Sequence record: PV081573.1
Length of the DNA stretch: 55,604 nucleotides
Direction: 5' to 3' (one strand)
Source: Acinetobacter phage vB_AbaM_3098
Under the pieces are notes generated by a model. It searched no databases and was not told where the DNA came from. It saw only the letters and a program-made list of their open reading frames with translations. Of this stretch, positions 6,337 to 53,514 are shown piece after piece. Each line of letters starts with the position of its first letter. The stretch's first letter is position 1. The translations under genes and the position numbers were made by a program.

Positions 6337-6360
6337 AAAAGCTGTTAAGAGTGTCGCAGG
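6337..6360 (+). promoter_or_regulatory. variant of the conserved motif (AAAAGCTGTTAAGAGTGTCGCAGG), putative promoter
   Basis: Similar to CCTGTTAAGTTGTGGGCGGG; part of an 11-bp inverted repeat (acactcttaac/gttaagagtgt). Confidence 0.3.
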
Positions 6361-6368
6361 AGAATCAA

Positions 6369-17408: not shown

Positions 17409-17482
17409 AGGGCTATAGCTCAGATGGATAGAGCATTCCACTTCTAATGGAATGGTCGTGAGTTCGAATCTCACTAGCCCTG
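17409..17482 (+). tRNA. tRNA-Arg (anticodon UCU)
   Basis: Perfect cloverleaf: acceptor agggcta/tagccct, D-stem gctc/gagc, anticodon stem ttcca/tggaa with loop cTTCTaa (anticodon TCT), T-arm gtgag-ttcgaat-ctcac, discriminator G. Confidence 0.85.
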
Positions 17483-17730
17483 CAATGTGAACTATTAATT
17501 AACATTAGACAGCCGATTTCGGATCGGTGACGTGGCTGAGAGAGTGAGCACAAACTGTTAGTACTTCTAGTAGAAGAACCACGTGACATCTCGGAAGATA
17601 GCGAGAAGTGGGTAGGTGTAGACTTCCCACTTAAAGCGAAATAGACTACATGTTGATTAGGCATGGCTTAATTAGGGTTGCAACCTTCTAACTGCTCAGG
17701 CAAGTGGTAAATAGCAACTGATATTTCCTT

Positions 17731-17802: not shown

Positions 17803-18447
17803 TTGGAACACTTAGAACTGCCATTTGATAAAGATGGTATTTGGAAATTATATAATGATGATCTTGCTAATCTTAGCCATGAAAGATCAATGGGCAGAAA
17901 ATCTGCTGAATCAAAAGGTCATCCTTACTATGGTATATTGAGAGAACTTTACAACTATCCTCACTTTATATCCTTCTCTGGAATGCACAGTAGACTCAAG
18001 TATTCTAAATTGGCAACTGATTTCCCGAGAACATTAGAAGGTTTTATTGACTATATTGTCTACATGGGTCCAGTACCTTCTGGAATGGAGAGACCTGTAG
18101 CTGGCCGAATAGATCATTCTGTAGGTTATCTAAGAGGTAATTTTGCATGGCAAAGTGCGGAGGACAACAATAGAGAATCTGCACTAAGAAATCAAAAGAA
18201 TGGTAAGTGGTTAGGTTACCAGACATGCGCAGCAGCTGGAATGCAAGACTGGAATGACGGAGTAAGAAATTATAGACTTCAACCAGATGACCCAAAGATA
18301 AAAGAATTAAATTTAAACAAAGGTAGACTATATACTCCAGACGAAAGAGTACAATGTCCTCACTGTTTAAAAGAAGGCGGTATTAAGAGAATGAAACAAA
18401 TTCATTTTGATAAATGCTACTTAAAAGATTCCAGTAAAACGGAATAA
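17803..18447 (+). CDS. HNH-family homing endonuclease-like protein
   Basis: GRIDHSVGYLRGNFAWQSAEDNNRE resembles the HNH H-N-N core, plus a C-terminal CPHC..C motif; located in the tRNA/tmRNA region as in T4 seg/mob genes. Confidence 0.45.
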   Translation: MEHLELPFDKDGIWKLYNDDLANLSHERSMGRKSAESKGHPYYGILRELYNYPHFISFSGMHSRLKYSKLATDFPRTLEGFIDYIVYMGPVPSGMERPVAGRIDHSVGYLRGNFAWQSAEDNNRESALRNQKNGKWLGYQTCAAAGMQDWNDGVRNYRLQPDDPKIKELNLNKGRLYTPDERVQCPHCLKEGGIKRMKQIHFDKCYLKDSSKTE

Positions 18448-18459
18448 TCACTGTAAAGT

Positions 18460-18510
18460 TATAAGTTATTAAGGCTTTGTGGACATGGGTTCAATTCCCA
18501 TCTACTCCAC
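18460..18510 (+). ncRNA. ssrA: tmRNA acceptor piece (3' part of a permuted ssrA): T-arm plus acceptor 3' strand
   Basis: T-arm atggg-ttcaatt-cccat (18485-18501), then ctactcc + discriminator A + C (18502-18510). It pairs with the GGGGTAG at 18540 including a G3:U70 wobble, the alanine identity element. Confidence 0.5.
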
Positions 18511-18539
18511 ATTAATGAATTCTAAGAGTTTATTAATGT

Positions 18540-18720
18540 GGGGTAGTACTGGTTTCGACACAGAGTATATAGAGCTTGTAATCAGTGGGATTGAGACCCT
18601 AAGTTTCAAACTTAAATACAAAAGCTAATGATAGTACTTTTGGTACTCGTGCTCTAGCTGCTTAATTGCAGTTAGACTGAGTGGAGTTCGGAGGAGCTTT
18701 GCAACAGAAATCCTCCAACC
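18540..18720 (+). ncRNA. ssrA: tmRNA coding piece (5' acceptor strand, tag reading frame ANDSTFGTRALAA*)
   Basis: GGGGTAGTACTGGTTTCGACACAG matches the conserved tmRNA 5' end (E. coli GGGGCUGAUUCUGGAUUCGACGGG). Resume codon GCT at 18624 after caaaa. Tag ORF 18624-18665 encodes ANDSTFGTRALAA and ends ALAA-TAA. 3' boundary uncertain. Confidence 0.55.
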
Positions 18721-18959
18721 AATTAATTACGACAATTATCTTCGAAACTAGCTGTTGCCACTTCAAGGTGAAAGTCCTTAGTGAAACACAGCTTTATGGT
18801 TACTTAAAATAAGTATCTGAAGTTACGTAGATAGGATTCTGAAGTAAGTAGAGCGTAGAGGATAAAATTAGATTAGCTATCTATACGAATACTCTCCACA
18901 GTGGACTTAATCCATTGGACCGAGCTTATAGCATAAGAAGATAATTGTCGTAATTAATT
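18721..18959 (+). repeat. 23-bp perfect inverted repeat flanking a 193-bp segment downstream of the tmRNA tag region
   Basis: aattaattacgacaattatcttc (18721-18743) vs gaagataattgtcgtaattaatt (18937-18959). Confidence 0.65.
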
Positions 18960-21409: not shown

Positions 21410-21672
21410 TGAGTACAAATAAGTTAGTCTTCTCTGGCTTAAATAGAGATCAAACAACAAGAGTTGAAATCTATATTAAAGTAATTAACGGAAGTCCTAT
21501 TAGCTATCTTGGAGTAGGAATTAATAATCAAACCCAGAATCAAGTAGCGAGTAAGGAAGAAATTATTCTAGAGGACTTACTTAAATGGGCAACTCGTTCT
21601 GGTATTAGATTTACATTTGATCAGGTAAATTCTATTAAATTAGAATATAACAAATTATTAGCTGTTTCTTAA
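21409..21672 (+). CDS. hypothetical protein (87 aa)
   Basis: ORF; the C-terminal ..LAVS* is encoded by the AGCTGTTTCTTAA motif. Confidence 0.5.
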   Translation: MSTNKLVFSGLNRDQTTRVEIYIKVINGSPISYLGVGINNQTQNQVASKEEIILEDLLKWATRSGIRFTFDQVNSIKLEYNKLLAVS

Positions 21673-21682
21673 ACACTCTCAG

Positions 21683-21703
21683 AACCTGTTAAGGTATGAG
21701 ACG
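21683..21703 (+). promoter_or_regulatory. conserved motif GAACCTGTTAAGGTATGAGACG; putative promoter of the leader-family array
   Basis: Exact AACCTGTTAAGGTATGAG core; 23 nt upstream of ATG 21726. Confidence 0.5.
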
Positions 21704-21725
21704 AAGACACAGTTGGAGATTTAAA

Positions 21726-22010
21726 ATGACTACACGTATAGAACAAATTCTAATCAAGCAACAAGGCTTAAAGTCTGTAAATGAATCAGCATTCAAAGAG
21801 CCTGATGAAAAAGAAGTTAAGGCTCACTATCTAAAATTATCCAGTATATCTGCAGATAATTACAAGGATAAACGAATTAACTTAGGTCCAGAACCAGACA
21901 CAATTTCTAAGTTTTCTAGAAATGGTTCTCACACTACTAAAATCAAGAACTGGATTAAAGAAGTTCATCAAACTCCAGAATACAAGAAAATTTTAGATAG
22001 AGCCAAATAA
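21726..22010 (+). CDS. leader-family protein 1 (N-terminal MTTRIEQILIKQQGLKSVNE|S)
   Basis: ATG at 21726 after promoter-like motif 21683-21703. Shares the conserved N-terminal leader with 9 downstream paralogs. The track start at 21696 is the ATG inside the GGTATGAG motif. Confidence 0.6.
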   Translation: MTTRIEQILIKQQGLKSVNESAFKEPDEKEVKAHYLKLSSISADNYKDKRINLGPEPDTISKFSRNGSHTTKIKNWIKEVHQTPEYKKILDRAK

Positions 22011-22059
22011 AGCTGCTCCTTCAACAATTAACAAATTTCAACGGAAATGTACATATAAA

Positions 22060-22521
22060 ATGACTACACGTATTGGTAAAATTTTAGAGATAAATGAATC
22101 TTTGTCAGAAGTTAATGAATCTGATTCCAGTTTAACAATAAACGGTAAGAATTATGCCGTTTCATTTATAAAAGGTGGAGATAGATATGAAGGTGTTAAC
22201 TATAGCTTAGTCCTTAAATCTAAGGAAGATATTTTAGTTTACCCTAGAATCTTCACTTACTCTGGCGGACAAAGTCAAGGTAGCTCTCGTAGTGAATCAG
22301 AGAACTTTTTAGAAGTTCTAGGTTATGGAGATACTGGCAATGGCTCTGGAGTAAAAGGTACTCCTAAGCCTTACTTAAGTAGATATATTGTTGATTTCCT
22401 AGAATCAGTTATCTCAGGTAAATCATATAATAAGGAAGCAGTAGCTAAATATGAAAGAATTAAGCACACTTTTTCACCTAAAGCAAAAGCTTCTGAAATT
22501 AAATCTGCAATCAGTTATTAA
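22060..22521 (+). CDS. leader-family protein 2 (MTTRIGKILEINESLSEVNE|S)
   Basis: Conserved N-terminal leader; conserved 5' UTR ttcaacgg..ataaaATG. Confidence 0.6.
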   Translation: MTTRIGKILEINESLSEVNESDSSLTINGKNYAVSFIKGGDRYEGVNYSLVLKSKEDILVYPRIFTYSGGQSQGSSRSESENFLEVLGYGDTGNGSGVKGTPKPYLSRYIVDFLESVISGKSYNKEAVAKYERIKHTFSPKAKASEIKSAISY

Positions 22522-22559
22522 CTGTTCTTTTTGAACAGTTTTCAACGGAGAAACATAAA

Positions 22560-22907
22560 ATGAGTACACGTGCAACAAATATTCTTTCAAAAATAACTGG
22601 TTCAGTTAACGAAAGCTCTCAGAAAGGGAAATCAATTAAGAGTGAACTAGAATTAGCAGAGTACGCTAGTGAGTTTATTAAGAAAAACAATATTAAAAGA
22701 GTTCCTGATCCTTTGTCTAACTACAAAGATAACTTTTTAACTCCACAGTGGAAGCGATCTGGTGCTGTATTAGGTTATAAATTACCAAAATCAGCAGGTG
22801 GTTTATTCTTAGGTTATTTCAACAGTGGTACTAAATCTGGAGTTGTGTTTGATACTCCTATTAGTGAGACTGAATTTCTTGCTCTAACAAGAAAACTTAA
22901 CGGATAG
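22560..22907 (+). CDS. leader-family protein 3 (MSTRATNILSKITGSVNE|S)
   Basis: Conserved N-terminal leader; conserved 5' UTR. Confidence 0.6.
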   Translation: MSTRATNILSKITGSVNESSQKGKSIKSELELAEYASEFIKKNNIKRVPDPLSNYKDNFLTPQWKRSGAVLGYKLPKSAGGLFLGYFNSGTKSGVVFDTPISETEFLALTRKLNG

Positions 22908-22956
22908 AGCTGTTCCTTCAACGATTTCAAAACAAATTTCAGTAGAGAAATATAAA

Positions 22957-23244
22957 ATGACTACACGTATTGGAAATATCTTAGAGAAGCGTGCTGGTTC
23001 AGTAAATGAATCAAAGATTGACCACCAGAAACTGGCTAATGATGCAGATTCAAACTATAAGCATTACGCTAATAAAGGTGATGAAAAGCATAGATTAATG
23101 GAAAGATTCAGATACCATTATCATTCTTCAAAAATAGAAGGAAAATCTGATTCAGATAAGGCTAACCACATTAAGAAAGCTAAAGCGGTTTACATTGATC
23201 TAGGAAAACCAGCATCTTTATCTAAAATGCACAATGATCTTTAA
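22957..23244 (+). CDS. leader-family protein 4 (MTTRIGNILEKRAGSVNE|S)
   Basis: Conserved N-terminal leader; conserved 5' UTR. Confidence 0.6.
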   Translation: MTTRIGNILEKRAGSVNESKIDHQKLANDADSNYKHYANKGDEKHRLMERFRYHYHSSKIEGKSDSDKANHIKKAKAVYIDLGKPASLSKMHNDL

Positions 23245-23270
23245 AGCTAGCTGTTCCTTCAGCGATTTCA

Positions 23271-23292
23271 AAGCCTGTTAATTTGTGGCGGT
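23271..23292 (+). promoter_or_regulatory. conserved motif AAGCCTGTTAATTTGTGGCGG; putative promoter of the RNAP fragment gene
   Basis: TTTGTGG variant; upstream of ATG 23335. Confidence 0.4.
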
Positions 23293-23334
23293 GGCTTGTC
23301 ACATTATAATATTATTTGTAATAGGGATTACATT

Positions 23335-24858
23335 ATGTCAAAAGTTCACGTTTCTAAAGATATGAGCGAAATCTATCGTCTTAAAGAAATGAAGATTCTT
23401 AAGATCACTTCTCCAGTTCGATTCAAAATGGAAAGTGGCTGGGTAGATACAACTGTTGGTCGTTTAATTATCTGGGATATTTCTGGTTATCTTCCAGACG
23501 ATTTCTTAAATAAGAAAACTATCAAGCATTTGATCACTCATATAAATCGTAACTTTGAACCTAAGGAAGCTGTACTTCGTTTAAAACGAATACAGCAAAT
23601 CGGCTTTGAAACTTCAACCCAGACTGGATTATCATTATGTTATGATGACTTCAAGTTTGATTTTGGTATTGATTTCAAGGCTGTAGAAGGTGAACTTTCT
23701 AAGATGTCTGTTGAAGAGCGATTAGAGTACGGCGATAAAATCATCAATGAAGCTACAGCTCGCTGGTGGAATGAAGTCGATAAAGCTAATCCACTTCGTA
23801 AGATGGGTGTATCTGGAGCTCGTGTAACTGATGCTCAGGTTCGTCAGATGATTGTAGCTAAGGGTCTCTTAGGTTCGATGACTGGTGAAATTGCACCTTA
23901 CCCTATTATGGAATCACTCACAACTGGTCTTAGTACATTTAACTACTTCCAGACAGTAGGTCCAGCTCGACGTGGTCTTGCAGATAACTACTTCGTAGTT
24001 CCAGCTTCAGGTTACTTTGCTCGACAGCTTGTAACAGTAGCTCGTGACTTGAAGTGTGTTGAGCATGATTGCGGAACTGTAAATACAATCTACGTTCCAA
24101 TTGAGTTTGGTCGAGGTCGACATGAACTTGGTAATGATGATGTCTTAACTAAGATGGATTTACAAGTTAGATCTGGTGAGATGATTAAAATGCGATCTCC
24201 AATTACTTGTGAATCAAGCAAGGGTGGAGTTTGCCAAGTGTGTGCAGGCTTAGATCCAGCTACTGAAGATTATTGGCGTATTGGAATGGGACTTGGAACT
24301 TGCTCAGCACAGCATATCTCAGAACCAACTACACAGTTAGGTCTTCGAGGTAAGCATACATCTGGATCGGTTACTCTAGCTTCAGCTAAGACTAAGGTAA
24401 GTAACACATTAGCAGATCTATTGAAATTGTTAGGTGGACGTGGTACTCACTTGATTGGACCTCAGTTAAGTGAGATAGATGGCTTTAATGATTATTATTC
24501 AAAAGAGAAAGACTGGTTGAAAGCTACAACTAATCTTCTTCTTAAAATGGAAAGTCTGGTAAGCGGAGCTGGTACGAGTATCGCATCTGTTCACTACGAG
24601 ATGATCTTACGTGGTTGTACTGATATCGTCAAGCAAGGTGACGGGACAATGGGTCTGCGTTCACTAGGAGCTCACGGTAAGGTTCAACCAACAACAGTTC
24701 ATGCATATGGCCGTAAAGTGCCTAGTTGGTTAAAACGATTAGGTTATGGTTATACGAATGAAGTTATCAAGACTGCAGCTACTACTCTGGAACCATCTTT
24801 AGGTGGATATCAAGAGCAGATTATTATGGCTCAGTTTGAACATCTTGAGGAAGCCTAG
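23335..24858 (+). CDS. multisubunit RNA polymerase beta-prime C-terminal fragment-like protein
   Basis: ITCESSKGGVCQVCAGLDP...GMGLGTCSAQHISEPTTQLGLRGKHTSGS matches the beta-prime trigger-loop/bridge region (E. coli ..[44 protein letters not shown]). ATG at 23335 downstream of motif 23271-23292. Confidence 0.55.
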   Translation: MSKVHVSKDMSEIYRLKEMKILKITSPVRFKMESGWVDTTVGRLIIWDISGYLPDDFLNKKTIKHLITHINRNFEPKEAVLRLKRIQQIGFETSTQTGLSLCYDDFKFDFGIDFKAVEGELSKMSVEERLEYGDKIINEATARWWNEVDKANPLRKMGVSGARVTDAQVRQMIVAKGLLGSMTGEIAPYPIMESLTTGLSTFNYFQTVGPARRGLADNYFVVPASGYFARQLVTVARDLKCVEHDCGTVNTIYVPIEFGRGRHELGNDDVLTKMDLQVRSGEMIKMRSPITCESSKGGVCQVCAGLDPATEDYWRIGMGLGTCSAQHISEPTTQLGLRGKHTSGSVTLASAKTKVSNTLADLLKLLGGRGTHLIGPQLSEIDGFNDYYSKEKDWLKATTNLLLKMESLVSGAGTSIASVHYEMILRGCTDIVKQGDGTMGLRSLGAHGKVQPTTVHAYGRKVPSWLKRLGYGYTNEVIKTAATTLEPSLGGYQEQIIMAQFEHLEEA

Positions 24859-24879
24859 TGCTTCCTTCTGGAGAATTAA

Positions 24880-25164
24880 ATGACACGAATTGCAAAGATT
24901 AACGCAATGGCTAAAGGCATTAGTGTTAATGAAGAACAAATTACAAGCCCAGATGATGCTGTAGTGCTTAAGAAATACGGTGCTACAGTTCCTAAAGGTA
25001 AGTTAGTTGGACGTTGCCCTGTAACTGGAATGGCTATTGTTCAACCACAGACACCTTTCCCACCTGATATGGGTAAATACAAATGGGAAGAAGATTCCAA
25101 ACTGTATAGAATCCCAGATGACTTAATTGACTCTATCGGAGGAAAATACAATGACGCAGACTAG
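24880..25164 (+). CDS. leader-family protein 5 (MTRIAKINAMAKGISVNE|E)
   Basis: Conserved N-terminal leader. Confidence 0.55.
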   Translation: MTRIAKINAMAKGISVNEEQITSPDDAVVLKKYGATVPKGKLVGRCPVTGMAIVQPQTPFPPDMGKYKWEEDSKLYRIPDDLIDSIGGKYNDAD

Positions 25165-25435
25165 AATTGGTAAAATCCTTGCATCTAAAGCTTCAACTCA
25201 AAACATTGATGAATCTCTTACTAAAAGTGTAGTAGATGAAGGTCAAGGAATGGGTTGTAAAGTTACTTCAGTTGCAGGTAAGACTGTAGTTAAATTAGAC
25301 GAGAACTGCTCTGATTCACAACGTAAAATGATTTCTGAAAAGTTGTCTAAAGGTGGATTTGTATTCTCTGAAGGTAGAAAGCAGTTTGCAATCGAAGATG
25401 CATCTGAAGCTGAAGTTGCAGAGTGCTTGAAGTAA
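25151..25435 (+). CDS. leader-family protein 6 (MTQTRIGKILASKASTQNIDE|S)
   Basis: ATG at 25151 with RBS ggagg; conserved leader; overlaps the upstream gene by 14 nt. Confidence 0.5.
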   Translation: MTQTRIGKILASKASTQNIDESLTKSVVDEGQGMGCKVTSVAGKTVVKLDENCSDSQRKMISEKLSKGGFVFSEGRKQFAIEDASEAEVAECLK

Positions 25436-25480
25436 AAGCTGTTTCTTAAGCATTGTTAAAACCTGTTAAGGTATGAGACG
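25436..25480 (+). promoter_or_regulatory. bipartite motif AAAAGCTGTTTCTTAAGC...AAAACCTGTTAAGGTATGAGACG; putative promoter
   Basis: Both motif halves present with about 24-bp spacing; palindrome agacgtct follows; 34 nt upstream of ATG 25514. Confidence 0.5.
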
Positions 25481-25513
25481 TCTTTGACGATTTACACCTT
25501 AGAGGATTACAAA

Positions 25514-25972
25514 ATGAACAATGCTTTGACAGTTGCACTTAACAGCCTTCCTAATTTGGCAACAGCATCACCTTGGGATGAGGTTACAATCGAGAAGGCT
25601 AAAAACTTCAAGGATGCTTCTACAATTCTGGATTTAGGTTCTCATCTAGATAACCTCACAGCTACTGGTAAGAATCCCGAAGACAAGATAGCTAAGATGG
25701 TTGATGTAGAATTCAATTGGGTTTCCATCCCGATGTCTTCTTATTACAACGATCTCTGGTTCGATCTTAAGAAATCTGAAATCCCTCCGTTGAAATCGGA
25801 AATTGCATCTGGCTCAAATATGTTAATCACACCAGAAGATTTGGTGAACATCTTGAATGTACAGAAAGATAAGGGATACAAGTTTCTTGTGAATGCCGAA
25901 GCTTCTCCAGTTGTGGTTAAGCATACTAAGACTCTAATTCTACAGGTTCGTAACTATACTGTGAATATGTAA
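25514..25972 (+). CDS. hypothetical protein (152 aa) inside the leader-family array
   Basis: ATG at 25514 with RBS agagga, downstream of promoter-like motif 25457-25480; the track start at 25484 is a TTG inside the motif region. Confidence 0.5.
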   Translation: MNNALTVALNSLPNLATASPWDEVTIEKAKNFKDASTILDLGSHLDNLTATGKNPEDKIAKMVDVEFNWVSIPMSSYYNDLWFDLKKSEIPPLKSEIASGSNMLITPEDLVNILNVQKDKGYKFLVNAEASPVVVKHTKTLILQVRNYTVNM

Positions 25973-25983
25973 GGAAAATAAAA

Positions 25984-26244
25984 ATGTCAAGAATCAAAGA
26001 TATCAAAGAAAAACAATCTGGCTTAGTTTCAGTAGATGAGTCAGCTAAGTCTAAGTGGTGGAAAACAGAAGGGAATTCGGATTCAATCGCTGTTTATAAG
26101 TTTAAGAAAGGTAATCAATACAGATATTTAGTTGGCTGGTTTACTCCCAAATCTGGTGAATCAATGGAAGATTTTCTGAAAAGAATTTCACCAACTAAGT
26201 ATGATTTAAAAGATCTTGAAGTAGACCCAAAATACTTAGCCTGA
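25984..26244 (+). CDS. leader-family protein 7 (MSRIKDIKEKQSGLVSVDE|S)
   Basis: Conserved N-terminal leader; RBS aaggaaaataaaaATG. Confidence 0.55.
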   Translation: MSRIKDIKEKQSGLVSVDESAKSKWWKTEGNSDSIAVYKFKKGNQYRYLVGWFTPKSGESMEDFLKRISPTKYDLKDLEVDPKYLA

Positions 26245-26256
26245 GGAAAAATTAAA

Positions 26257-26502
26257 ATGTCAAGAATTAAAAATTTATCTGAGAAGCAATCTGGCTTATT
26301 CATTGTTAATGAATCTAAGGCTGACAAAGCCGCAGCTAGATTAGAAGATATCTGGGATGCTATTCCTTCTGATAAGTCAAAAGCTAAAGCGTATCTGGAT
26401 AAACACAAGAAAGAAGTTCTTGCTTTAATCAATAGCTTTGAGCCAGATGAGTACAGAGCAGGTAATGCAGAATGGCGTGACGCTGAGAACTGGGGATATT
26501 AA
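26257..26502 (+). CDS. leader-family protein 8 (MSRIKNLSEKQSGLFIVNE|S)
   Basis: Conserved N-terminal leader; RBS gaggaaaaattaaaATG. Confidence 0.55.
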   Translation: MSRIKNLSEKQSGLFIVNESKADKAAARLEDIWDAIPSDKSKAKAYLDKHKKEVLALINSFEPDEYRAGNAEWRDAENWGY

Positions 26503-26798
26503 TGACAAGAATAGCAACACTTCTTGCTAAGACTAAGTCTGTAAATGAAGCTTTCTCACTTAGGAATTTACGTCAAGTTGTTTCTGGGGACACTCATAAT
26601 CTTTGGAAGAATGAATACTGTGATCTTATTGTAAGTGATAAAGATGGAAGTAAGATCGTAGATCAAATGTCAACAGTTGTGTCTGATATGGACTTGGCTA
26701 ATAAGTTTGCTGAGGAAATTGCAAGAGATTATTTCCCAGAGCAGGCTTCTGCAGTTGAGAAAGAAATCAAATCAATGTTAGTCTTGAACGAAGGCTAA
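26502..26798 (+). CDS. leader-family protein 9 (MTRIATLLAKTKSVNE|A)
   Basis: Conserved N-terminal leader. Confidence 0.55.
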   Translation: MTRIATLLAKTKSVNEAFSLRNLRQVVSGDTHNLWKNEYCDLIVSDKDGSKIVDQMSTVVSDMDLANKFAEEIARDYFPEQASAVEKEIKSMLVLNEG

Positions 26799-26854
26799 TT
26801 TTAAATTTAATTAACTGGGATGGATTGTAACGCCCAGCGCTCGAGATAAATAAA

Positions 26855-28078
26855 ATGAAGACTATTGTAAATGGCAGTGTAGTCTCTGTCAATGAAGCTT
26901 TTACAGATCGTATGACACAGTACATTGATGACAGAGCGATTGAATATCTTAAACAAAATTTACGTGAATCAAAAGAAACTGGCAAGAAATCTAAATACGA
27001 ATACTACTCTGATTTAGCAGACCGTGCTACTGATCCAGTAATGCGTGTATTCTATGAGTTCGCTATGCTTCTTCCAGAAGAGCAAGCTATGAACTTAGCA
27101 CGTGAATATTATCAACGTGAAATTCGCTCAGGTACAATCTCATATGACCAATACGAGTCAGAGAATGATGAAGGCGAAACTATGTCTGGAATTATGAATA
27201 CTAAGTTCTCAGTAAGTGCTGGCTTAGTAGATAAAGGTGTATTCTCAGCAATCGCTGCAGGTGAACGCCGTACTCCAGAACGTAATATGGAATTGAGTGA
27301 CTTATTTGAAAAATTATTCTTCACTTATCTTGAAGATGTAGGTCGTTTAGTTCTATGTGCAAGACTTGTGACAGGTTCAAGTACAGGGCGAGTTCGTAAA
27401 TCTGAAGCTGGTAAATTAGATTTATCAGAGATTATGCACCGCACTCCACCTGAATATGCAGAAGTATTACGTCAATACCAGAAAATGCTTGATGCAGGTA
27501 TTCCTGAAGATCAAATTAATGCGAAGAATTTACTTACTGGATGGAAGCCAACTGAAACTCACCCAGTGACAATCAAAGGTATTGCATCTCATACTGACTA
27601 CCGTGATGGACAAGCTGATCTAGAAGAAGGCATCCATATGATGGTAGGTGACGGATATCAAACTGTAGGTCAAATTAAAAAATTCTTCCACGTTAATGAA
27701 GAATTGATTACTTATGATGACGGTACTGATCTTGATGATGTAGACGAAGCTGCAGGTGATGATCGAAAGATTCTAAAAACAATCGAATTTATTTTGTCTG
27801 GTCATCCAGTTCGATACACTGATTTAAACAAAGCTCTGAAATTTGTTATTGCAGATAATATTAAGAGCAAATCTCCTATGCTTAAATCAAAATTATTTAG
27901 AAACAGAAAGCCGAAGTACATTCTTCAAGCTATGCTTAAGATGCTTAAGTCTGGTCGAGAAGAGCAAATCAAGCAAGTGCAGTTTGCAATTTTAGCTCCA
28001 GCTTTAACTCGTAATGCCAAAGCTAAGAAAATGCTAAATAACATTCTTAACTCTAAAGGCAAACAATTACTAAGATAA
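26855..28078 (+). CDS. leader-family protein 10, large (407 aa; MKTIVNGSVVSVNE|A)
   Basis: Leader with the SVNEA motif followed by a 390-aa body; lies immediately upstream of the tail-fibre genes. Confidence 0.55.
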   Translation: MKTIVNGSVVSVNEAFTDRMTQYIDDRAIEYLKQNLRESKETGKKSKYEYYSDLADRATDPVMRVFYEFAMLLPEEQAMNLAREYYQREIRSGTISYDQYESENDEGETMSGIMNTKFSVSAGLVDKGVFSAIAAGERRTPERNMELSDLFEKLFFTYLEDVGRLVLCARLVTGSSTGRVRKSEAGKLDLSEIMHRTPPEYAEVLRQYQKMLDAGIPEDQINAKNLLTGWKPTETHPVTIKGIASHTDYRDGQADLEEGIHMMVGDGYQTVGQIKKFFHVNEELITYDDGTDLDDVDEAAGDDRKILKTIEFILSGHPVRYTDLNKALKFVIADNIKSKSPMLKSKLFRNRKPKYILQAMLKMLKSGREEQIKQVQFAILAPALTRNAKAKKMLNNILNSKGKQLLR

Positions 28079-28112
28079 TATGAGGGCACCTAAGCCCTCC
28101 TCGGAGTTTAAA

Positions 28113-30350
28113 ATGATTGAACAAAAATCAAAAACATTTGAAGAAATTGCTGGAATTATAACTGAGCATCATCACGACCAGCAAACTGAAGATATTTCAA
28201 ATATTTTATTAGCTTTAAATACTGGTAAATTAATTCAAGCCTTTGACTCTACATTAGCTTCTAAGATAGGTGGATACCCTGTTAACTCAACAGTAGTCCG
28301 CAATGATGGTGTTGAAGTAATATCTACAATTGCTAATAACATTACTGATCCCAATATTAGTATGAATGGTTGGGAATTAAAATTAATACACACTAGCTTA
28401 ATAAATTATAACTGGGAACCTAAATTAAAAGGTTATCCATTAAATGCCCGTGTGATGCTTGACACTGGTGATATTGTTAAATCTACTGTGCCTAATAATA
28501 CAACAAATCCAAATTTAGATATGGCTGGATGGTTATTGGCAAACTCAGCTAGTGCTATTTTAGATAAGAGCGGTATAAGTCAACAAGAGGTTAATGACCT
28601 AACAGCGCACTTAGATGCATATTTAAAAGAAATGAATGTTCTTCCAAGTGAAGATATATCTCCGGTATTGAACCAAATAAAAGCAGACGGCATCAAAAAG
28701 TTACATGTTAAAAGTCGTGAATATATTGTTAATTCGTTGATTGAGTTCACTGAAGATTTCGAGTTCGTCAACGAGACTGGCACGGTATTTAATTTTGGAG
28801 ACACGGGTGGCTTCTATGCTTCTGGTTCTCACACACAGATAACAACTTTAGCTAGCGACATTGTAAAAAATCAGAGCCAATCTTTTGATGTTGCAGATGC
28901 GTCTCAAATTCAAAAAGGGGACTGGTTGGTTATCTACTGTACAGATGACTTTAGTTACTCACCGTATCGATACTACTACAGAAAAGGCGAATTTGTAGAA
29001 GTTGCTTCAGTAAGCGGGAACACTGTTAAGTTTTTCGGTAGAGCTTATGACAATTATCTAACCTCTGAAAATATCGTTATTCTAAAAGTTAATCCGATCA
29101 ATTTTAAGTTTAACTATCTGAAAACAGTTTCTACTGATAACAATCCTAATGTTCCATTAGTAATTGATTACGCCCGTAACTTTGAAACAGGGTATTTTGA
29201 GAATAAGGGTGGTAAATTTGCTGGACTTAGATTGCGCAGATGTTTTAATTTCAATATTGCTATTAACTCAGCTAAAAATAATGCACCAGCAAATACCTTA
29301 AACTATGGTATTCAGATTTCTAACTGCCAAAATTATAATTATTATGGTGGTAGCAACAATTCAACTCGTCATGCGGTCGCAATAGGCGGTGACGAAGATT
29401 TAGGTTGCGTGCCTTGTCGTAAGGGTTACATCTCTGGAGCAACCCTCCATAGTGAAACAGACACTTCTGGTTCAGATATGCACGGAAATGTTGAGCGCAC
29501 TGTATATGATCACTGTACAACAAATTACGCAACATTTGGCGCAGGTGATAACGAGTATGCCAACTGCGATATTTATGAGCGTGAGGGTCAAGGGTGTGTA
29601 CTTATTGCGGAGCCTAGAGGTGGTTTCTTCAAACTGACAAACAATAACTATTATACAAAAACACCATTAAATTCATGGTCGCTAGTTCATGGTATTATTG
29701 AAAAACAATTGCGTGAAGATTTGACAGTAAAACTGGATGGAGGGCGTATTAACGGTGTTGGTGGTGCATCAGCTGGTATTGTAACAATAAGACAATCTAA
29801 CGCTTTGAATGAAACTCTCACAAATAAAATAAATGTTCATATTACTGGAGGTGTATCTTGTGATTTTGATGCGCTTAGACACTGGGCGTGGGTTGAAGAT
29901 GGAACTATCGGTAGATACACTGTTCCAATCGGCTACATAATCGTTGATGATGTAGTTAATACGAAAGACACCGCAAATCCGTATTTAATCTATCCGAGTC
30001 AATCAACACTGGCTACTAATGTTAAAACTAGACAAATGTCGCAGCAAGGGGCTGTCTCAGTGACTTCTGCTGTCAATAACACAGCTACCCGCGCAAATGT
30101 TGTAAACTTAAAGTACAAGTATTCTAAAGCTCCTAATGTGATTGTTAGTGTTGGCAACTTGGTTGGTTCTGCATCATGGGATGCAACATTCTTTAATGAA
30201 GATATTAATGTTGAGCCTCTTCGAACACCGACCCCCGTCAACTCTTTAGTTGCAATAGATCAGGTTAGGCCAGCGGTGCTTTGGAATAAAAAAGTTGTGA
30301 CGCCAAAAACCTTTAATTTGTATTGGGAATCTGGAATACGTGAGATATAG
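28113..30350 (+). CDS. tail fibre / tailspike protein 1 (beta-helix type receptor-binding protein)
   Basis: ATG at 28113 with RBS ggag. N-terminal HHHDQQTEDI anchor motif shared with the two paralogs below. Repeated N.TNPN.D..GW motifs. Large C-terminal Gly/Asn-rich region. Confidence 0.6.
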   Translation: MIEQKSKTFEEIAGIITEHHHDQQTEDISNILLALNTGKLIQAFDSTLASKIGGYPVNSTVVRNDGVEVISTIANNITDPNISMNGWELKLIHTSLINYNWEPKLKGYPLNARVMLDTGDIVKSTVPNNTTNPNLDMAGWLLANSASAILDKSGISQQEVNDLTAHLDAYLKEMNVLPSEDISPVLNQIKADGIKKLHVKSREYIVNSLIEFTEDFEFVNETGTVFNFGDTGGFYASGSHTQITTLASDIVKNQSQSFDVADASQIQKGDWLVIYCTDDFSYSPYRYYYRKGEFVEVASVSGNTVKFFGRAYDNYLTSENIVILKVNPINFKFNYLKTVSTDNNPNVPLVIDYARNFETGYFENKGGKFAGLRLRRCFNFNIAINSAKNNAPANTLNYGIQISNCQNYNYYGGSNNSTRHAVAIGGDEDLGCVPCRKGYISGATLHSETDTSGSDMHGNVERTVYDHCTTNYATFGAGDNEYANCDIYEREGQGCVLIAEPRGGFFKLTNNNYYTKTPLNSWSLVHGIIEKQLREDLTVKLDGGRINGVGGASAGIVTIRQSNALNETLTNKINVHITGGVSCDFDALRHWAWVEDGTIGRYTVPIGYIIVDDVVNTKDTANPYLIYPSQSTLATNVKTRQMSQQGAVSVTSAVNNTATRANVVNLKYKYSKAPNVIVSVGNLVGSASWDATFFNEDINVEPLRTPTPVNSLVAIDQVRPAVLWNKKVVTPKTFNLYWESGIREI

Positions 30351-30553: not shown

Positions 30554-32914
30554 ATGCCTGCACTTACATTACAATCAAGATTAACTACAGAAATGGCAGA
30601 AGTGCGTATTCCTGTAGAAGATCATGACAGACAAACACGAGACATACGTTTAATCGCGGATGTCGTTGAGTCACAAGATAAACAGATTCAACAGAATAAA
30701 CAAAGAAATTATGATCCTTTATTTATTGAAACTTATGGTGGATATGAGAAAGGCACTATATTGGTTTTGAGTAATGGACTAGAAGTAGTAGCTGTAAAGG
30801 ACAACGTTAACACCAATCCCAACAATGATTTAACTGGATGGGAAATCAAGAAAACAGATTTGTCTCAAATCTATGACAAAGAGGATGGCAAATCTATTTC
30901 CCAGAAATACGCTCTAGTTATTAATTCTATTGAAGATTTAAAGACTTATTCCAAAGGTAAGCCAGAGCAAGTGGTGTACGTGGAATCATATATTTTGGGT
31001 AAATCAGGAGGCGGTGGTTATTTCATACTTAAAACTGATTTCACAGATACTCCTGATGAAGTATACAGCTTCGAAGGTTTGGGTGGAATCTGGTTGAGAT
31101 ACGATTGGAAATCGCCTGATATTTATGATGCAGGTATTCTAGATTTAGCAGTAGATGTAACTGTTAAATTTAAATCTCTTCTTAAATCTACTTCAAAATA
31201 TCTAAAGAAATCAGTAATTTCTCTTAGAGCTCAAACTTTGAAGTTAACTGATCTAGAAATTCCATCTAACACTACTATTATTGATGGGGTTATGGATTTC
31301 TCCGCTTCTACTTCTATTTTAGCTGACAACAAATCTTACAATGGTTTTATCATTGGAGCAAATAGATTAAATAGAACCTCAAATCCAGGAGTATTTGCTG
31401 CTTATTCTCAACTAGATCAGCTAGAAAACATTGCTTTTGAAAGAGTAGGATTTAAGGTTCCACCTGCTGGCACTTACGGATTTTCTACAGATTTAATGTA
31501 TTTCCACAAGTTAAATGGATTTAAATTAAAATCATGTTATGGCTTAGATTTCAATTCAAACAGGATTGTAACTATCGCAGGAGGAATGGACGGCACTGTA
31601 ACTTCTAATGACATTCCTATGTTCAGTCTGATTGATCCAGTTAATGGTAGATGTGCTGGAATAGAAATTTCAGACAACCAATTTGACGCTGGTCATTCCT
31701 TCGGTGTCAATTCAGGAGGTCAAAGGTTAATTGTTCCAGCTATGCGATTAACTGGTTGTAGTGACATTAAAATTAGTAAAAATAACTTTAAAAATTTTAA
31801 TATTCCAATTTTAGTAGATGCTTATTGCAGAGATGCAGAGGCGTTCGACAACACTTGCTCTATCGATGACGAAGTGCTAGACATCTGGTTAAGTACAACT
31901 TCAAGAACCGATCAAGTTGGTTTGTACGGAGGTCAAGGTGCTTATAATATCAGATTCTATAATAACACCTTGAAAAATTTCATTAATAAAGCTATCATGT
32001 TGGAAGGAGTAAGCTACTCAGAGATTTACTCTAATATTTCAACTTACTCTGATTACGCCAAAACTTTAATTTCATCAACTTCTCTGTTCTACGGTATTCA
32101 ATTGAATTCCAATATTAGACAACACCCTTACACTTCTGTTGCAGGTGTACAGCATGTAAATGTTTACAATAACAGAATGATTGATGCCAAGTCTCCATTT
32201 ATAATGAGCAGCACTACAGCCTATTCAATGAAGAGTATAAGGGTAAATGACAATTCATTCGAATCAATTGGCTCTCAAATGGCAATGACAGTTAACAGAT
32301 GCTTCGATTCAGTTTTCACTAATAATAGATGCAAAGGCGGTTTGTCTATTGGAGAGGTAAAAGATTCTAGTTTCTCTTTGAATTCAATGCAAACACCTAG
32401 CAACTATGCTCTTTATTTGACAGGATCAGAAAAACTTAATTTAAGATTTCAAAATAATGATTTTGTTTGTGATTCTGGACCTGTTATTTACAACGGAACC
32501 ACCTCTGGTAATTTAATTGAATTACGCGGGGGTAAAATTCAAGCTAAAGATGGCACTAGTGCGGCTTTGCAAAATGGTGCTTCCGCTGGAGCTATTAGAG
32601 CTTATGATTTTACCAACGGTTTAGTTGAAATGAGGACTACTATTTCAGACAAACCTGTAAATTTAGCTGCAGCTGCTAGAGTGCTTCTAAGCCAAACTGT
32701 AACTGGTCTTAAAAATGGCTGGACTGCTAATATTAGTCTAGGTTCAATGGGAACTTTGTGGTCAGGGAGCTCTATTGATTTATCAATAAAAGCTGGAGTT
32801 AAAACAGACACTGTAGATATCTTAGTAAGAAATGAAAGCGCTGCCGCAGTCAACTTTACTCCTACTTTAACTGTAGAGTTCAAATCGTTCCTTAGTAATG
32901 TCTATACAAACTAG
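30554..32914 (+). CDS. tail fibre / tailspike protein 2 (pectate-lyase-like right-handed beta-helix)
   Basis: N-terminal EDHDRQTRDI anchor motif and VNTNPNNDLTGWEIKK motif shared with 28113; beta-helix repeat signatures (ISDNQF, SKNNFKNF, NNTLKNF, NNRCKGG). Confidence 0.6.
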   Translation: MPALTLQSRLTTEMAEVRIPVEDHDRQTRDIRLIADVVESQDKQIQQNKQRNYDPLFIETYGGYEKGTILVLSNGLEVVAVKDNVNTNPNNDLTGWEIKKTDLSQIYDKEDGKSISQKYALVINSIEDLKTYSKGKPEQVVYVESYILGKSGGGGYFILKTDFTDTPDEVYSFEGLGGIWLRYDWKSPDIYDAGILDLAVDVTVKFKSLLKSTSKYLKKSVISLRAQTLKLTDLEIPSNTTIIDGVMDFSASTSILADNKSYNGFIIGANRLNRTSNPGVFAAYSQLDQLENIAFERVGFKVPPAGTYGFSTDLMYFHKLNGFKLKSCYGLDFNSNRIVTIAGGMDGTVTSNDIPMFSLIDPVNGRCAGIEISDNQFDAGHSFGVNSGGQRLIVPAMRLTGCSDIKISKNNFKNFNIPILVDAYCRDAEAFDNTCSIDDEVLDIWLSTTSRTDQVGLYGGQGAYNIRFYNNTLKNFINKAIMLEGVSYSEIYSNISTYSDYAKTLISSTSLFYGIQLNSNIRQHPYTSVAGVQHVNVYNNRMIDAKSPFIMSSTTAYSMKSIRVNDNSFESIGSQMAMTVNRCFDSVFTNNRCKGGLSIGEVKDSSFSLNSMQTPSNYALYLTGSEKLNLRFQNNDFVCDSGPVIYNGTTSGNLIELRGGKIQAKDGTSAALQNGASAGAIRAYDFTNGLVEMRTTISDKPVNLAAAARVLLSQTVTGLKNGWTANISLGSMGTLWSGSSIDLSIKAGVKTDTVDILVRNESAAAVNFTPTLTVEFKSFLSNVYTN

Positions 32915-32921
32915 GTGAATT

Positions 32922-33449
32922 ATGTTCAACATTAAATTCGATTGGAAAACAGTTGGATTAGCAGTCTTGCTTTGCTTGGCTGCTTTCCTTACTTGGAAAT
33001 TTATTCACAATTCAAATAAAGTTGAAGATCAGAAGAATACTATAACTCAGTTAGAAGCAAAAATAAAGTCTGACAGAGAGTTATATAATACAAATATTAA
33101 TACTCTTCAATCCCAGATCAAATCTCTTAATGAGACAGTGGCACTAGAGAGGACATACAATGAAAATCTTAAAACACTGGAAAAAGTTATTGCTTCTAAT
33201 TCTGCTTCTAATTCCGGCTTGCTCGACGAGATTACCAAGCTCAGATATAGGAACAGTTCCGATACAGCTTCCACCGAAGACCTCATTCGACGAGTCGATG
33301 TTCTTAGTGGATCACTCGAAGAAGTATCAAGAGGTTACGGAGAAGCAGCGTCAGATCATTCGAGAGCTAAAGTAGAGTTCAGTAAGTGTAAGTCCTATCT
33401 GGATGAAGTGTACCGAATAGTTAATCCAGACAATAAAGAAGAGAAATAA
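32922..33449 (+). CDS. membrane-anchored coiled-coil protein (tail-fibre assembly/chaperone or spanin-like candidate)
   Basis: N-terminal TM helix VGLAVLLCLAAFLTW followed by coiled-coil heptads; sits between two tail-fibre genes. Confidence 0.45.
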   Translation: MFNIKFDWKTVGLAVLLCLAAFLTWKFIHNSNKVEDQKNTITQLEAKIKSDRELYNTNINTLQSQIKSLNETVALERTYNENLKTLEKVIASNSASNSGLLDEITKLRYRNSSDTASTEDLIRRVDVLSGSLEEVSRGYGEAASDHSRAKVEFSKCKSYLDEVYRIVNPDNKEEK

Positions 33450-33450: not shown

Positions 33451-35559
33451 ATGTCATACATTACACCGCAATCGAAGACTTCAATTGAAATTAATAATCG
33501 TATTGCTGCAGTAAACCATGATGAGCAAACTGCTGATATCAAAGCACTATTAGACAAAGTAGATTTAGAGCCATCTCCTGATCTAACCTATACTGGAAAT
33601 CCTGCAGGTCCTACAGATGTACCAGTACCCGTTAATAAAGCTGGCAATTTTTCTTTGTGGTTTGATGCACTAATCCAGCCTATTATGAATTTAATTTCCA
33701 AGCAAAGTAAAGCAACTGGTATTTTAGACTCATCTGGCAAAACTCAGCAACAAATTAATGATGCTGTTCTAGGCGTCACTTACTACGCAGCCTTAGAAGG
33801 CTTCGTTCCAGATGACATTTCCAAAGCTACAGCGAATTCCCTAGCTTGGGTTAATTTGCAAAATAAAATGGTAAATGGAGATAGTGTCGTATTTGATTTG
33901 GGTACTTTTTATTTTAACGATCCTATTAACATTACTAAAATTATTAATATTGAAGGCAGAGAAAAACAGCACACTTTGTTTAAATTTAATAACCCTACTA
34001 ATGGCATTATAAGAAATGTACGAGGTGGTAGGCTATCTAATTTTACAGTAACTGGAACTAAAACTGCAGTTACACTTGATCCTAAAAACAAAATATTTGG
34101 CACCATTGGATTATACGACAAATATGATGAAGCAGCGTCAGCTGCTGGTTACATTGACACTTATAATGTAGTGTCAACTGGGTTCGACTGTGGTCGAGTA
34201 AATGCAACAGAAGGCAGTTCAACTTGGAATGGAGCTTACCGAGAAACTAGAGATTGCTGGTTCCGAAATAACCGTATAGGTTTGGTTTTCCTTAATGGAA
34301 GCACAGATGACAAATATTACGGTGGTATTGTAAGCGCAAATACAGAAATTGGAATCTGGTCTTACTCTACTACTGCGATGTATAATAACTGTAAATTTAT
34401 AGGGACTACTATTGAAGGTAATGGAATTTATGACCAATCTTTAGGTTATAATTCTTCAACTCCTTCTAAATGCAATATCTATGTTGGCGGAGTTGCATCT
34501 GTTTATCTAATTGGAAGCTACAATGAAAAAGCTCTAAATTTTATTGAAGAAGGCGGTCAATTATATAAAATAGGATGTCACAATCACAGTAACGCTATTG
34601 ATTTAACTAAGAATGGATATGTATTTTATTCTGGAATTAACTGGGGTAAATTAACTTTAGTTCCGTATTTCAATACTCTGGGCTCTATTTTATATCCTTT
34701 CACAGGAATCACTAACCCAGCAGTTCAATCTACTACGGCTAAAACTGTTAAATTTAGATCTACAGTTAACAACGGTGTTGGATATGCAGTTCGTTCTAGA
34801 TTAATTACATTGCCGTCTGGTATTTTAGCTGATTCTATTGGCGGTGAATATTTCAGATTAAAATATAAAATTAATTCTGGATACACAGCAAATGCTGGAT
34901 TAAAGCCTGTCGTTGAAATTTATTTCTACGCTAAAGATGGCAGTTACATGGGTCTTAGAACAGGTATCTGGTCAAATTACCAAACTCAATCTGGTAATGG
35001 CCAAGTTGCCGACATCAGCGCAATAGCTCCTTCTAGTGTATCTACAACTGCAGGTGCGTGGTCTATTAACAAAGGTCAGGAATTAAGTCATATTCTAGTG
35101 TCAATAGCATTCAAGAAGGGAGATAACTCTAATCCAGATTTTAGTTCAGATAATTTAGATATAGATATTTTCGACATGTCAGTTGGTTTCTTCGCTAAAA
35201 ATGAATATAACCTTACTCCTTTCAGACATGATACAGGTACAACTGAACAAAGACCTTTATTACAGTCTACTGACATTAACTACAGATATTTAGATACTAC
35301 TCTAAATAGGACTGTTATTTGGAATGGAACTGCATGGGTTAATGAATTTATCCAAGCTGATTTAACTGCAGGATTAACAGCTGGAACTTCAACTACTGCT
35401 AACTTATCTGCGATAGCCAATGCTATTAACACTACAGGTAAGCGGACAGGTTTAACAGTTCTGAATACAACCAACAATAAATTTTATATGGCTGTAGGTG
35501 GAGCTGCAGGGGACAACTGGATTTCAACAGATGGAAGTTCAACTCTAACCCCAGTTTAA
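33451..35559 (+). CDS. tail fibre / tailspike protein 3
   Basis: N-terminal VNHDEQTADIKALL anchor motif as in the paralogs; Gly/Asn/Tyr-rich beta-rich body; terminator follows. Confidence 0.6.
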   Translation: MSYITPQSKTSIEINNRIAAVNHDEQTADIKALLDKVDLEPSPDLTYTGNPAGPTDVPVPVNKAGNFSLWFDALIQPIMNLISKQSKATGILDSSGKTQQQINDAVLGVTYYAALEGFVPDDISKATANSLAWVNLQNKMVNGDSVVFDLGTFYFNDPINITKIINIEGREKQHTLFKFNNPTNGIIRNVRGGRLSNFTVTGTKTAVTLDPKNKIFGTIGLYDKYDEAASAAGYIDTYNVVSTGFDCGRVNATEGSSTWNGAYRETRDCWFRNNRIGLVFLNGSTDDKYYGGIVSANTEIGIWSYSTTAMYNNCKFIGTTIEGNGIYDQSLGYNSSTPSKCNIYVGGVASVYLIGSYNEKALNFIEEGGQLYKIGCHNHSNAIDLTKNGYVFYSGINWGKLTLVPYFNTLGSILYPFTGITNPAVQSTTAKTVKFRSTVNNGVGYAVRSRLITLPSGILADSIGGEYFRLKYKINSGYTANAGLKPVVEIYFYAKDGSYMGLRTGIWSNYQTQSGNGQVADISAIAPSSVSTTAGAWSINKGQELSHILVSIAFKKGDNSNPDFSSDNLDIDIFDMSVGFFAKNEYNLTPFRHDTGTTEQRPLLQSTDINYRYLDTTLNRTVIWNGTAWVNEFIQADLTAGLTAGTSTTANLSAIANAINTTGKRTGLTVLNTTNNKFYMAVGGAAGDNWISTDGSSTLTPV

Positions 35560-53348: not shown

Positions 53349-53514
53349 GTTACCTAGTTACTAAAGAGGTTGAAGGCCATAAACAATACCTTTCTTCAAA
53401 GAATCTGGAAACAGAACCAGAATTCACTTGTAATATAGATGATGCTGTAGAACTTCATACAAAAGAATTAGCTAATGAGTTAGCAGAAGAATTTGAAGCG
53501 GAAGTTGAAGAAAT

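Follow-up and report, generated by a model that had tools for sequence, protein, structure and literature searches.

The stretch analysed here comprises 55,604 nucleotides (nt) of Acinetobacter phage vB_AbaM_3098 (PV081573.1) and is referred to as the window; all of its genes are located on the + strand. Between positions 21726 and 28078 it encodes an array of nine small open reading frames (ORFs) of 81-153 amino acids (aa) and one ORF of 407 aa, which have an N-terminal leader in common. The members of this array and the genes interspersed with or adjoining them are given below, with the predicted cleavage site marked by an arrow and the isoelectric point (pI) referring to the predicted mature part.

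21726-22010, + strand: leader gene 1, 94 aa; leader MTTRIEQILIKQQGLKSVNE↓S; predicted mature 74 aa, pI 9.5
22060-22521, + strand: leader gene 2, 153 aa; leader MTTRIGKILEINESLSEVNE↓S; predicted mature 133 aa, pI 9.2
22560-22907, + strand: leader gene 3, 115 aa; leader MSTRATNILSKITGSVNE↓S; predicted mature 97 aa, pI 9.7
22957-23244, + strand: leader gene 4, 95 aa; leader MTTRIGNILEKRAGSVNE↓S; predicted mature 77 aa, pI 9.5
23335-24858, + strand: C-terminal fragment of the RNA polymerase (RNAP) subunit beta', 507 aa, without leader; Pfam Rpb1 domains 3-5, phrog_3015
24880-25164, + strand: leader gene 5, 94 aa; leader MTRIAKINAMAKGISVNE↓E; predicted mature 76 aa, pI 5.0
25151-25435, + strand: leader gene 6, 94 aa; leader MTQTRIGKILASKASTQNIDE↓S; acidic mature part, with pI 5.4 for the residues that follow a later VVD↓E site
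25514-25972, + strand: conserved ORF, 152 aa; candidate divergent leader MNNALTVALNSLPNLATASPWDE↓V; membership uncertain
25984-26244, + strand: leader gene 7, 86 aa; leader MSRIKDIKEKQSGLVSVDE↓S; predicted mature 67 aa, pI 9.4
26257-26502, + strand: leader gene 8, 81 aa; leader MSRIKNLSEKQSGLFIVNE↓S; predicted mature 62 aa, pI 5.3
26502-26798, + strand: leader gene 9, 98 aa; leader MTRIATLLAKTKSVNE↓A; predicted mature 82 aa, pI 4.6
26855-28078, + strand: leader gene 10, 407 aa; leader MKTIVNGSVVSVNE↓A, end motif only; predicted mature 393 aa
28080-30350, + strand: tailspike/depolymerase gene; abuts the array, with structural genes next on the same strand

The ten start coordinates named in an earlier, sequence-only reading of this DNA were all correct. 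Each start is preceded by a Shine-Dalgarno-like GGAG, GAGG or AGGA 6-12 nt upstream, and the same starts, including 21726 (not 21696) and 25151 (not 25127), were chosen when genes were called independently on an identical contig in public data (L011). The genes had also been described as consecutive, which needs to be revised, as the run is broken by the RNAP beta' fragment and the 152-aa ORF. The RNAP subunit fragment itself had been recognised, and is assigned by its matches to the Pfam Rpb1 domains and phrog_3015. It is 78% identical to a protein of Acinetobacter phage Ab1-TPeters, its start being taken from the independent gene call. The tail-fibre genes follow directly downstream as had been described, with the tailspike gene at 28080 adjoining the 407-aa gene. 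The 152-aa ORF may carry a divergent leader, since its orthologues all display MTT...ASPWDE↓A/S near residue 22.

The leader consists of 14-21 residues and follows the pattern M-(T)-T/S-R-I-x-x-I/L, a short variable stretch, and (S)-V/I-N/D-E↓S/A. The residue after V/I-N/D-E is serine or alanine in nine of the ten leaders and glutamate in the remaining one, and the leader of leader gene 2 includes two sites, MTTRIGKILEINE↓SLSEVNE↓S. This ending fits the T4-type prohead protease rule, as the sequence-only reading had noticed, with V/I-N/D-E standing beside L/I-X-E of T4 (PMC9026906). Among the + strand genes of the window, the motif [VI][ND]E[SA] occurs three times in 14,167 internal positions. 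Ten of the 87 genes have it within their first 26 residues, nine being array members, where 0.42 would be expected (binomial P about 2e-11). Outside the array, a 95-aa ORF (6351-6638, + strand) contains SIDE↓S at residues 22-26 (MSQENQMSTEYTILKAGPIELSIDESS) without the M-T-R-I front, which may be a chance match or a further substrate.

The leader is conserved at the level of the peptide. Arginine is encoded by CGT in some copies and by AGA or CGA in others, and serine by TCN or AGT. Such switches between codon families indicate that the peptide is conserved and not the DNA, which points to selection on the peptide; a translated 5' repeat artefact and an upstream overlapping frame were both rejected. 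Between the leader genes of the window and of Ab1-TPeters, nucleotide similarity extends from the ATG to the Glu-Ser codons, and with these boundaries the leader behaves as a separate module.

A conserved leader in front of a variable body is also seen in the precursors of ribosomally synthesised and post-translationally modified peptides (RiPPs) and in some secreted effector families. The leader could thus direct its proteins elsewhere, for instance to export, the membrane or another phage compartment, or be of the RiPP or polymorphic-toxin type. Direct reading of the leaders revealed no hydrophobic core of at least 10 residues, no twin-arginine and no lipobox motif, and R, K and E charges are found throughout; a secretion signal was rejected accordingly. 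A RiPP leader was rejected as well, as the bodies (62-393 aa) are far above RiPP core size and no modifying-enzyme or transporter gene was identified in the approximately 14 kb annotated around the array. Moreover, the motif equals the capsid maturation sites of the clade, and homologues in phage YerA41 were found in virions (PMC7354516). Another destination of the leader is therefore regarded as highly improbable.

Downstream of the leader, the mature bodies are mutually dissimilar in BLASTP and phmmer comparisons. The claim that the bodies are unrelated is thereby upheld, while the term paralogs, used in the same reading, is not appropriate, the leader alone being common to these proteins. 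The predicted mature small bodies measure 62-133 aa; five are basic (pI 9.2-9.7) and four are acidic. Each of the nine small proteins is a singleton at 90% identity among approximately 15 billion proteins, and Pfam and PHROGs gave no match for any leader-bearing protein of the array. No homologues were found for the protein of leader gene 2, and a tblastn search with two mature bodies against 50,697 phage genome records returned no match. When the nine small proteins were used as one joined query, no match was obtained at E <= 10 and even identical entries of the collection were missed; this result is uninformative on absence, because the proteins' own sequences, present in the collection, were not recovered. 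The single-sequence AlphaFold2 model of the 153-aa protein (22060) reached a predicted local distance difference test (pLDDT) score of 59, with other models at about 40, which is too poor for a structure search.

The 407-aa protein is conserved in the clade and all-helical in its AlphaFold2 model (pLDDT 66). A word-indexed search for homologues gave three close relatives only, and an exhaustive HMMER search was needed to assemble the family of 33 representatives. The N-termini of this family vary in length and sequence, but always end in h-x-E (h, hydrophobic) right before the conserved region, and residues 1-22 of the 407-aa protein are disordered in the model. In these respects the family behaves as expected of a protein that undergoes processing. 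Foldseek searches of BFVD and PDB with the model matched its own orthologues only. Structure prediction had been named in the sequence-only reading as a check on the bodies; models were made for the 407-aa and 153-aa proteins, and neither was informative on function.

The closest sequenced phage is Ab1-TPeters (109.75 kb), followed by the Escherichia coli phages IME392 and EP_H11 and Ralstonia phage RP13. The RP13/YerA41-like group is characterised by hypermodified thymidine, which was measured in YerA41 and Carin-5 and inferred for RP13, and by its own multisubunit RNAP (PMC12686479). The window corresponds to the first half of a genome of this group, with the head genes located in the other half. 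At the syntenic place, Ab1-TPeters contains seven leader genes, e.g., with the leaders MTRISELVNKHNQVVPVEE↓A, MTRIGKLLEINESLKVEE↓S, MTTRIGKILEINESLSKVSE↓A, and MSTRIGKILEINESLSNVNE↓S. One of the seven, a 128-aa leader gene (MTRISQILDMKARLGDVNE↓S; PP763253, 22215-22601, + strand), is unannotated, and the record has CDS0035/0036 on the opposite strand. A third phage (Logan contig L009) includes at least five leader genes. The flanking genes are 73-78% identical among these three phages, while the content of the array differs. Among the small bodies, the single case of an orthologue is leader gene 7 (25984), with its counterpart in L009 only. Three slots accommodate the leader genes, namely before the RNAP gene, from the RNAP gene to the 152-aa ORF, and from the 152-aa ORF to the 407-aa gene. 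A scan of IMG/VR anchored on the RNAP beta' fragment detected no related loci, and no description of the array was found in the few papers on this phage group that were consulted.

The head machinery of the relatives carries the same type of motif as the leaders. The sequence-only reading had named a comparison with the capsid protein and the prohead protease; this was made in relatives, where the motif matches, while the phage's own head genes lie outside the window. Capsid-protein homologues of the clade carry Pfam PF07068 (Gp23), and the protease-scaffold protein (465-510 aa) matches phrog_207 at E 1e-16 to 1e-20, the same family to which T4 gp21 is assigned at 8e-76. A PDB sequence search with the capsid protein and protease of Ab1-TPeters returned nothing. 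The capsid proteins start with a leader-like tag, i.e., MTKQLRTDFNSVDE↓A in Ab1-TPeters, MTKQNIVLSNVDE↓A in IME392, and MNTKIKTLAEINE↓SS in RP13. I/V-(N/D/S/A)-E is found within the first 30 residues of 54 of the 68 closest metagenomic capsid homologues (P0005-P0072; P0005, the closest candidate for the capsid protein of vB_AbaM_3098 itself, comes from a different sample), and most have a second site of the (V/I)NE↓S type near residue 45-50. The capsid N-terminus MNTKIKTLAEINES resembles the array leader MTTRIGKILEINES. A position-specific scoring matrix built from capsid-protein N-termini alone placed array genes in six of the seven top positions among 164 window ORFs. The coiled-coil scaffold part of the protease-scaffold protein contains 9-10 sites of the h-(N/D/S)-E↓(S/A) type in Ab1-TPeters and IME392, and the tripeptide NES is approximately 20-fold enriched in the Ab1-TPeters protein. 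By analogy, these sites match what would be expected if the scaffold were chopped up like T4 gp22. In the relatives, capsid protein, protease and scaffold domain alike carry the cleavage-type motif of the array leaders.

YerA41 provides a more distant case. Six small genes flanking its terminase gene carry the leader MSRIS-LNKKFE↓A/S, with the variants MSRISDLNKKFE↓A, MSRISQLNKKFE↓A, MSKISQMNQKFE↓S, MSRISKLMNKFE↓A, and MNKLTRVGQVLKKFE↓S. The sites are KKYE↓S and QKKFE↓Y in the capsid protein of this phage, AKYE↓S, EKLE↓S and DKFE↓S in its scaffold, and KME↓S and KLE↓S in its protease. Judged from these predicted sites, the end of the leader is changed together with the sites in the protease substrates. 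The leader genes were matched by length and gene order to g003-g006, g008 and g009 (101, 175, 157, 132, 136, and 113 aa). According to Table S2 of PMC7354516, g003, g004, g005, g006, g008, and g009 are late-expressed and particle-associated as determined with liquid chromatography–tandem mass spectrometry (LC–MS/MS). YerA41 belongs to the same broad phage group; the front of its leader looks homologous to that of the array (MSRIS-L...), its bodies are likewise small and unrelated, and the proteins of this leader type were detected experimentally in virions and are expressed late (PMC7354516). In contrast to the array, the YerA41 leader is shorter and ends in K-F-E↓A/S, the genes flank the terminase gene and not an RNAP gene, and protease and scaffold are encoded by separate genes. 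The consulted passages of the YerA41 paper and its supplement (PMC7354516) make no mention of the shared leader, although this was not specifically looked for.

Several leader genes are also preceded by a repeated 24-nt box, of which the region has five copies, at 21660, 22011, 22908, 23249, and 25437. Three of these positions are listed as features.

21660-21703, + strand: bipartite intergenic box, AGCTGTTTCTTAA... then AACCTGTTAAGGTATGAGACG; ahead of leader gene 1; promoter-like
23249-23292, + strand: intergenic box; precedes the RNAP beta' fragment
25437-25480, + strand: intergenic box; precedes the 152-aa ORF

The duplicated 5' untranslated region of the sequence-only reading is accordingly present as a repeat, but is not specific to the leader genes. 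The box is part of a bipartite motif, AGCTGTTTCTTAA...AACCTGTTAAGGTATGAG. Both the window and Ab1-TPeters contain this motif repeatedly in their + strand intergenic regions, and it is also located upstream of non-structural genes and of genes without leader. As a member of this wide intergenic motif, the box is not array-specific. The form ...TTAAAACCTGTTAAG(G/T)T(A/G)TG(A/G)G... is found at positions 5928, 13746, 14165, 21685, 23274, 25462, 38930, and 53941 of the window (+ strand) and at many + strand intergenic sites in Ab1-TPeters (L003/L004). It is often followed by a GC-rich hairpin, with a second box, (A/T)(G/C)CTGTT(T/C)CTTAA, often about 12-25 nt upstream. By its sequence, the motif with the AACCTGTTAAG box is not sigma-70-like and may be a promoter for the phage RNAP. 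The minus-strand structural module of Ab1-TPeters contains no core-pattern match with the consensus context of this motif, and no late-promoter motif common to the array and this module could be defined, as there are too few intergenic regions in the latter.

The box bears on a further explanation, which takes the 5' coding segment common to these genes for a module of recombination or expression. It would consist of the translation-initiation region and the box and have been spread by duplication or gene conversion, and its peptide would have no targeting function. In line with such a module, nucleotide identity includes the ribosome-binding region (92% between 22053-22090 and 22950-22987, and 74% between 25975-26042 and 26248-26315), and the box is repeated upstream of several copies. 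However, the arginine and serine codon-family switches keep the peptide, and the divergent leaders MSRIKNLSEKQSGLFIVNE and MTRIATLLAKTKSVNE retain the peptide pattern only. The peptide motif also recurs on the capsid protein, protease and scaffold of the relatives and co-varies in YerA41, while the box precedes genes that have no leader. This explanation is considered very unlikely.

Based on the sequence patterns and on the analogy with T4, it is quite probable that the array proteins are loaded into the head and that the prohead protease trims them. The proposal of the sequence-only reading, in which the leader is a T4-type capsid-targeting propeptide on hypervariable cargo, is thus backed by the head proteins of the relatives, the co-variation in YerA41 and the YerA41 proteomics. 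For vB_AbaM_3098 itself, cleavage and packaging are inferred only, as are ejection into the host and any anti-defence or takeover function. In the proposed mechanism, the front of the leader (M-T/S-(T)-R-I-x-x-I/L), which resembles the N-terminus of the clade's gp23-type capsid protein, would dock the protein on the scaffolding core during prohead assembly. The gp21-family prohead protease would then cut after (S)-V/I-N/D-E, leaving the mature proteins of 62-133 aa and one of 393 aa free in the head together with the DNA. Loading would need the tag alone, and the bodies would be freely swappable; this proposal would account for three sister Acinetobacter phages with almost completely different sets. 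Finally, ejection together with the DNA would probably bring the mature proteins into the host, where they would act early in the manner of IPI*, Alt and other internal proteins of T4.

That at least some of the array proteins are injected anti-defence or takeover effectors is put forward tentatively, with a likelihood somewhat below even, and this step is drawn by analogy with T4 IPI*. A more far-reaching version is rather doubtful, in which the tag would be a copy of the capsid N-terminal propeptide and constitute a module of about 60 nt that loads the product of any gene. The Acinetobacter phages would accordingly have an arsenal of 7-10 injected ORFan effectors that is rapidly exchanged, some of which could act against defences targeting hypermodified DNA, as in the IPI*/GmrSD scenario.

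The evidence for targeting and cleavage applies equally to a different role, in which the leader proteins are components of the prohead core or its assembly, like T4 gp67 and gp68 or scaffold accessories. Once cleaved, they would be degraded, expelled, or kept as counter-ions for DNA packing, and would have no role in the host. Five of the nine mature bodies are small and basic (pI 9.2-9.7), consistent with DNA binding, bulky hypermodified DNA is reported or inferred for the phage group (PMC12686479), and the 407-aa member is conserved in the clade, as would be the case for an assembly factor. The near-total turnover of the small bodies in three sister phages is unexpected for assembly parts, and all nine are singletons at the 90% level given above. 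Four of the bodies are acidic, and the variable equivalents in T4 are dispensable for assembly, with at least IPI* acting in the host (PMC9026906). A pure assembly role is hence judged unlikely, albeit less so than the alternatives of another destination or of a mere expression module.

Several points weigh against packaging and trimming of the array proteins. The capsid protein and protease of vB_AbaM_3098 lie outside the window, and all evidence on substrate motifs comes from relatives. The clade protease matches Pfam Peptidase_S77 only below the curated threshold, and its hhalign comparison with gp21 is weak (probability 3.3%, E 0.013). This alignment pairs GTIGHD with GELNHP and VSTKAKG with VSSRGLG of the clade protease and gp21, respectively, and the segments correspond to GxxxH and VS(S/T)(R/K)xxG. 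The LC–MS/MS data of YerA41 establish presence in the virion and not cleavage (PMC7354516), and contamination is possible, since the virion preparation also held replication enzymes (PMC7354516). These data further come from a phage with a KFE-type leader and not from phages of the V-N-E type. The YerA41 leader genes are located in a late head module, unlike the array in the window, where the leader genes lie beside an RNAP gene and behind a promoter-like box that also precedes non-structural genes. For this reason, late co-expression with the head genes is only putative. In addition, four of the nine small bodies are acidic, whereas the internal proteins of T4 are basic, and Pfam, PHROGs and the two structure models revealed no recognisable function in any body.

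The RNAP beta' gene is situated inside the cargo array without a leader of its own, and RNAP subunits of YerA41 are reported as particle-associated in Table S2 of PMC7354516. Together, the embedded gene and these subunits hint at the locus being a general "delivered with the DNA" module, and the clade may package an RNAP.

Further features were observed in the window. In a gene-poor stretch upstream of the array, a transfer-messenger RNA (tmRNA; 18408-18756, + strand) was identified with 88.9 bits for Rfam beta_tmRNA and 108 bits for tmRNA_permuted, for which ARAGORN gives the tag peptide ANDSTFGTRALAA. The same stretch contains a tRNA-Arg(TCT) at 17409-17483 (+ strand). Downstream of the array, three large tailspike/tail-fibre genes (28080-30350, 30554-32914, and 33451-35559, + strand) have a common N-terminal ...HHD(Q/E)QT(E/R/A)DI... 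and different C-terminal parts. The first of them encodes a depolymerase of the pectate-lyase type with approximately 91% DNA identity to a tail protein of phage AP22. These sequences suggest that several receptor-binding proteins can be swapped on one shared adaptor and that there was horizontal exchange with an Acinetobacter phage that is not related. Between the tail-fibre genes, an Rz-like spanin gene (32922-33449, + strand) harbours a nested ORF (33160-33375, + strand) with a lipobox-like signal start (MKILKHWKKLLLLILLLIPAC...), and from their sequences the two look like an i-spanin/o-spanin pair. The window also contains two glycosyltransferase genes (11468-13722, + strand), and Ab1-TPeters encodes thymidylate-synthase-like and nucleotide kinase genes at 53180-54229. 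As judged by sequence, these genes fit the hypermodified-thymidine DNA that is reported or inferred for the phage group.

The array extends the "address tag + interchangeable cargo" principle of T4 to the gp23-type myoviruses related to RP13, YerA41, IME392, and Ab1-TPeters, and offers a simple sequence rule for listing the packaged proteins of RP13/YerA41-like phages. It also indicates that the cleavage motif co-evolves between cargo tags and capsid or scaffold substrates. Nine ORFan proteins of an Acinetobacter baumannii phage, and other sets in its sisters, become candidate injected anti-defence or takeover factors, which is relevant to host range in phage therapy. Furthermore, a tag of about 20 aa could be used to load foreign proteins into these capsids, as has been done with T4.

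In T4, IPI, IPII, IPIII, and Alt reach the scaffolding core by means of capsid targeting sequences of 10-19 residues. Targeting depends on the front of this tag, whereas gp21 cuts at its end (L/I-X-E). Once the tag has been removed, the proteins are ejected along with the DNA. The internal proteins of T-even phages are highly diverse, with the tag alone conserved, and IPI* blocks a restriction enzyme that attacks glucosylated DNA (PMC9026906, PMC3012670). T4 and the array have in common a short N-terminal propeptide on otherwise unrelated proteins, which ends in hydrophobic-x-Glu followed by alanine or serine. The mature products are small (7-15 kDa) and often basic, and gene content is hypervariable among closely related phages. 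MKTYQEFIAE is the targeting sequence of T4, whose Alt protein acts in the host through ADP-ribosylation. As in the relatives of the array phage, a gp23-family capsid protein and a gp21-family protease build the head of T4, and its DNA is modified, as is reported or inferred for the phage group, with glycosyltransferases being encoded in both cases. Leader and bodies show no sequence similarity to those of T4 as judged by the family libraries and the T4 tag, with no direct alignment to the T4 internal proteins being made. Since no array protein has a Pfam or PHROG match, the array would work like that of T4 without being a member of its sequence families. The array leader is longer (14-21 aa), often includes two sites, and resembles the N-terminus of the clade's own capsid protein; there is also a loose resemblance to the T4 gp24 propeptide, MAKINELLRE↓S. 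Further differences are the number of genes, with 9-10 compared to 3-4 in T4, and their interleaving with a phage RNAP subunit gene. In the array clade, the protease is fused to the scaffold, and the lineage is RP13/YerA41-like with a multisubunit RNAP.

A second comparison is offered by phiKZ-like phages and SPN3US, whose head-internal propeptides are cut after glutamate by a diverged gp21-type protease (gp175/gp245), and whose inner-body proteins are ejected into the host (PMC9026906, PMC5694885). Their genomes are 2-3 times larger than that of the array phage, and no homology was detected. The cleavage motifs are S/A/G-X-E and A-X-E without a common address tag, in contrast to the V or I at P3 in the array. 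Their inner-body proteins form paralogous families with related bodies, whereas the bodies of the array are not paralogous. Like the array, these phages may have redundant propeptide sites, and they likewise encode multisubunit RNAPs (PMC9026906, PMC5694885).

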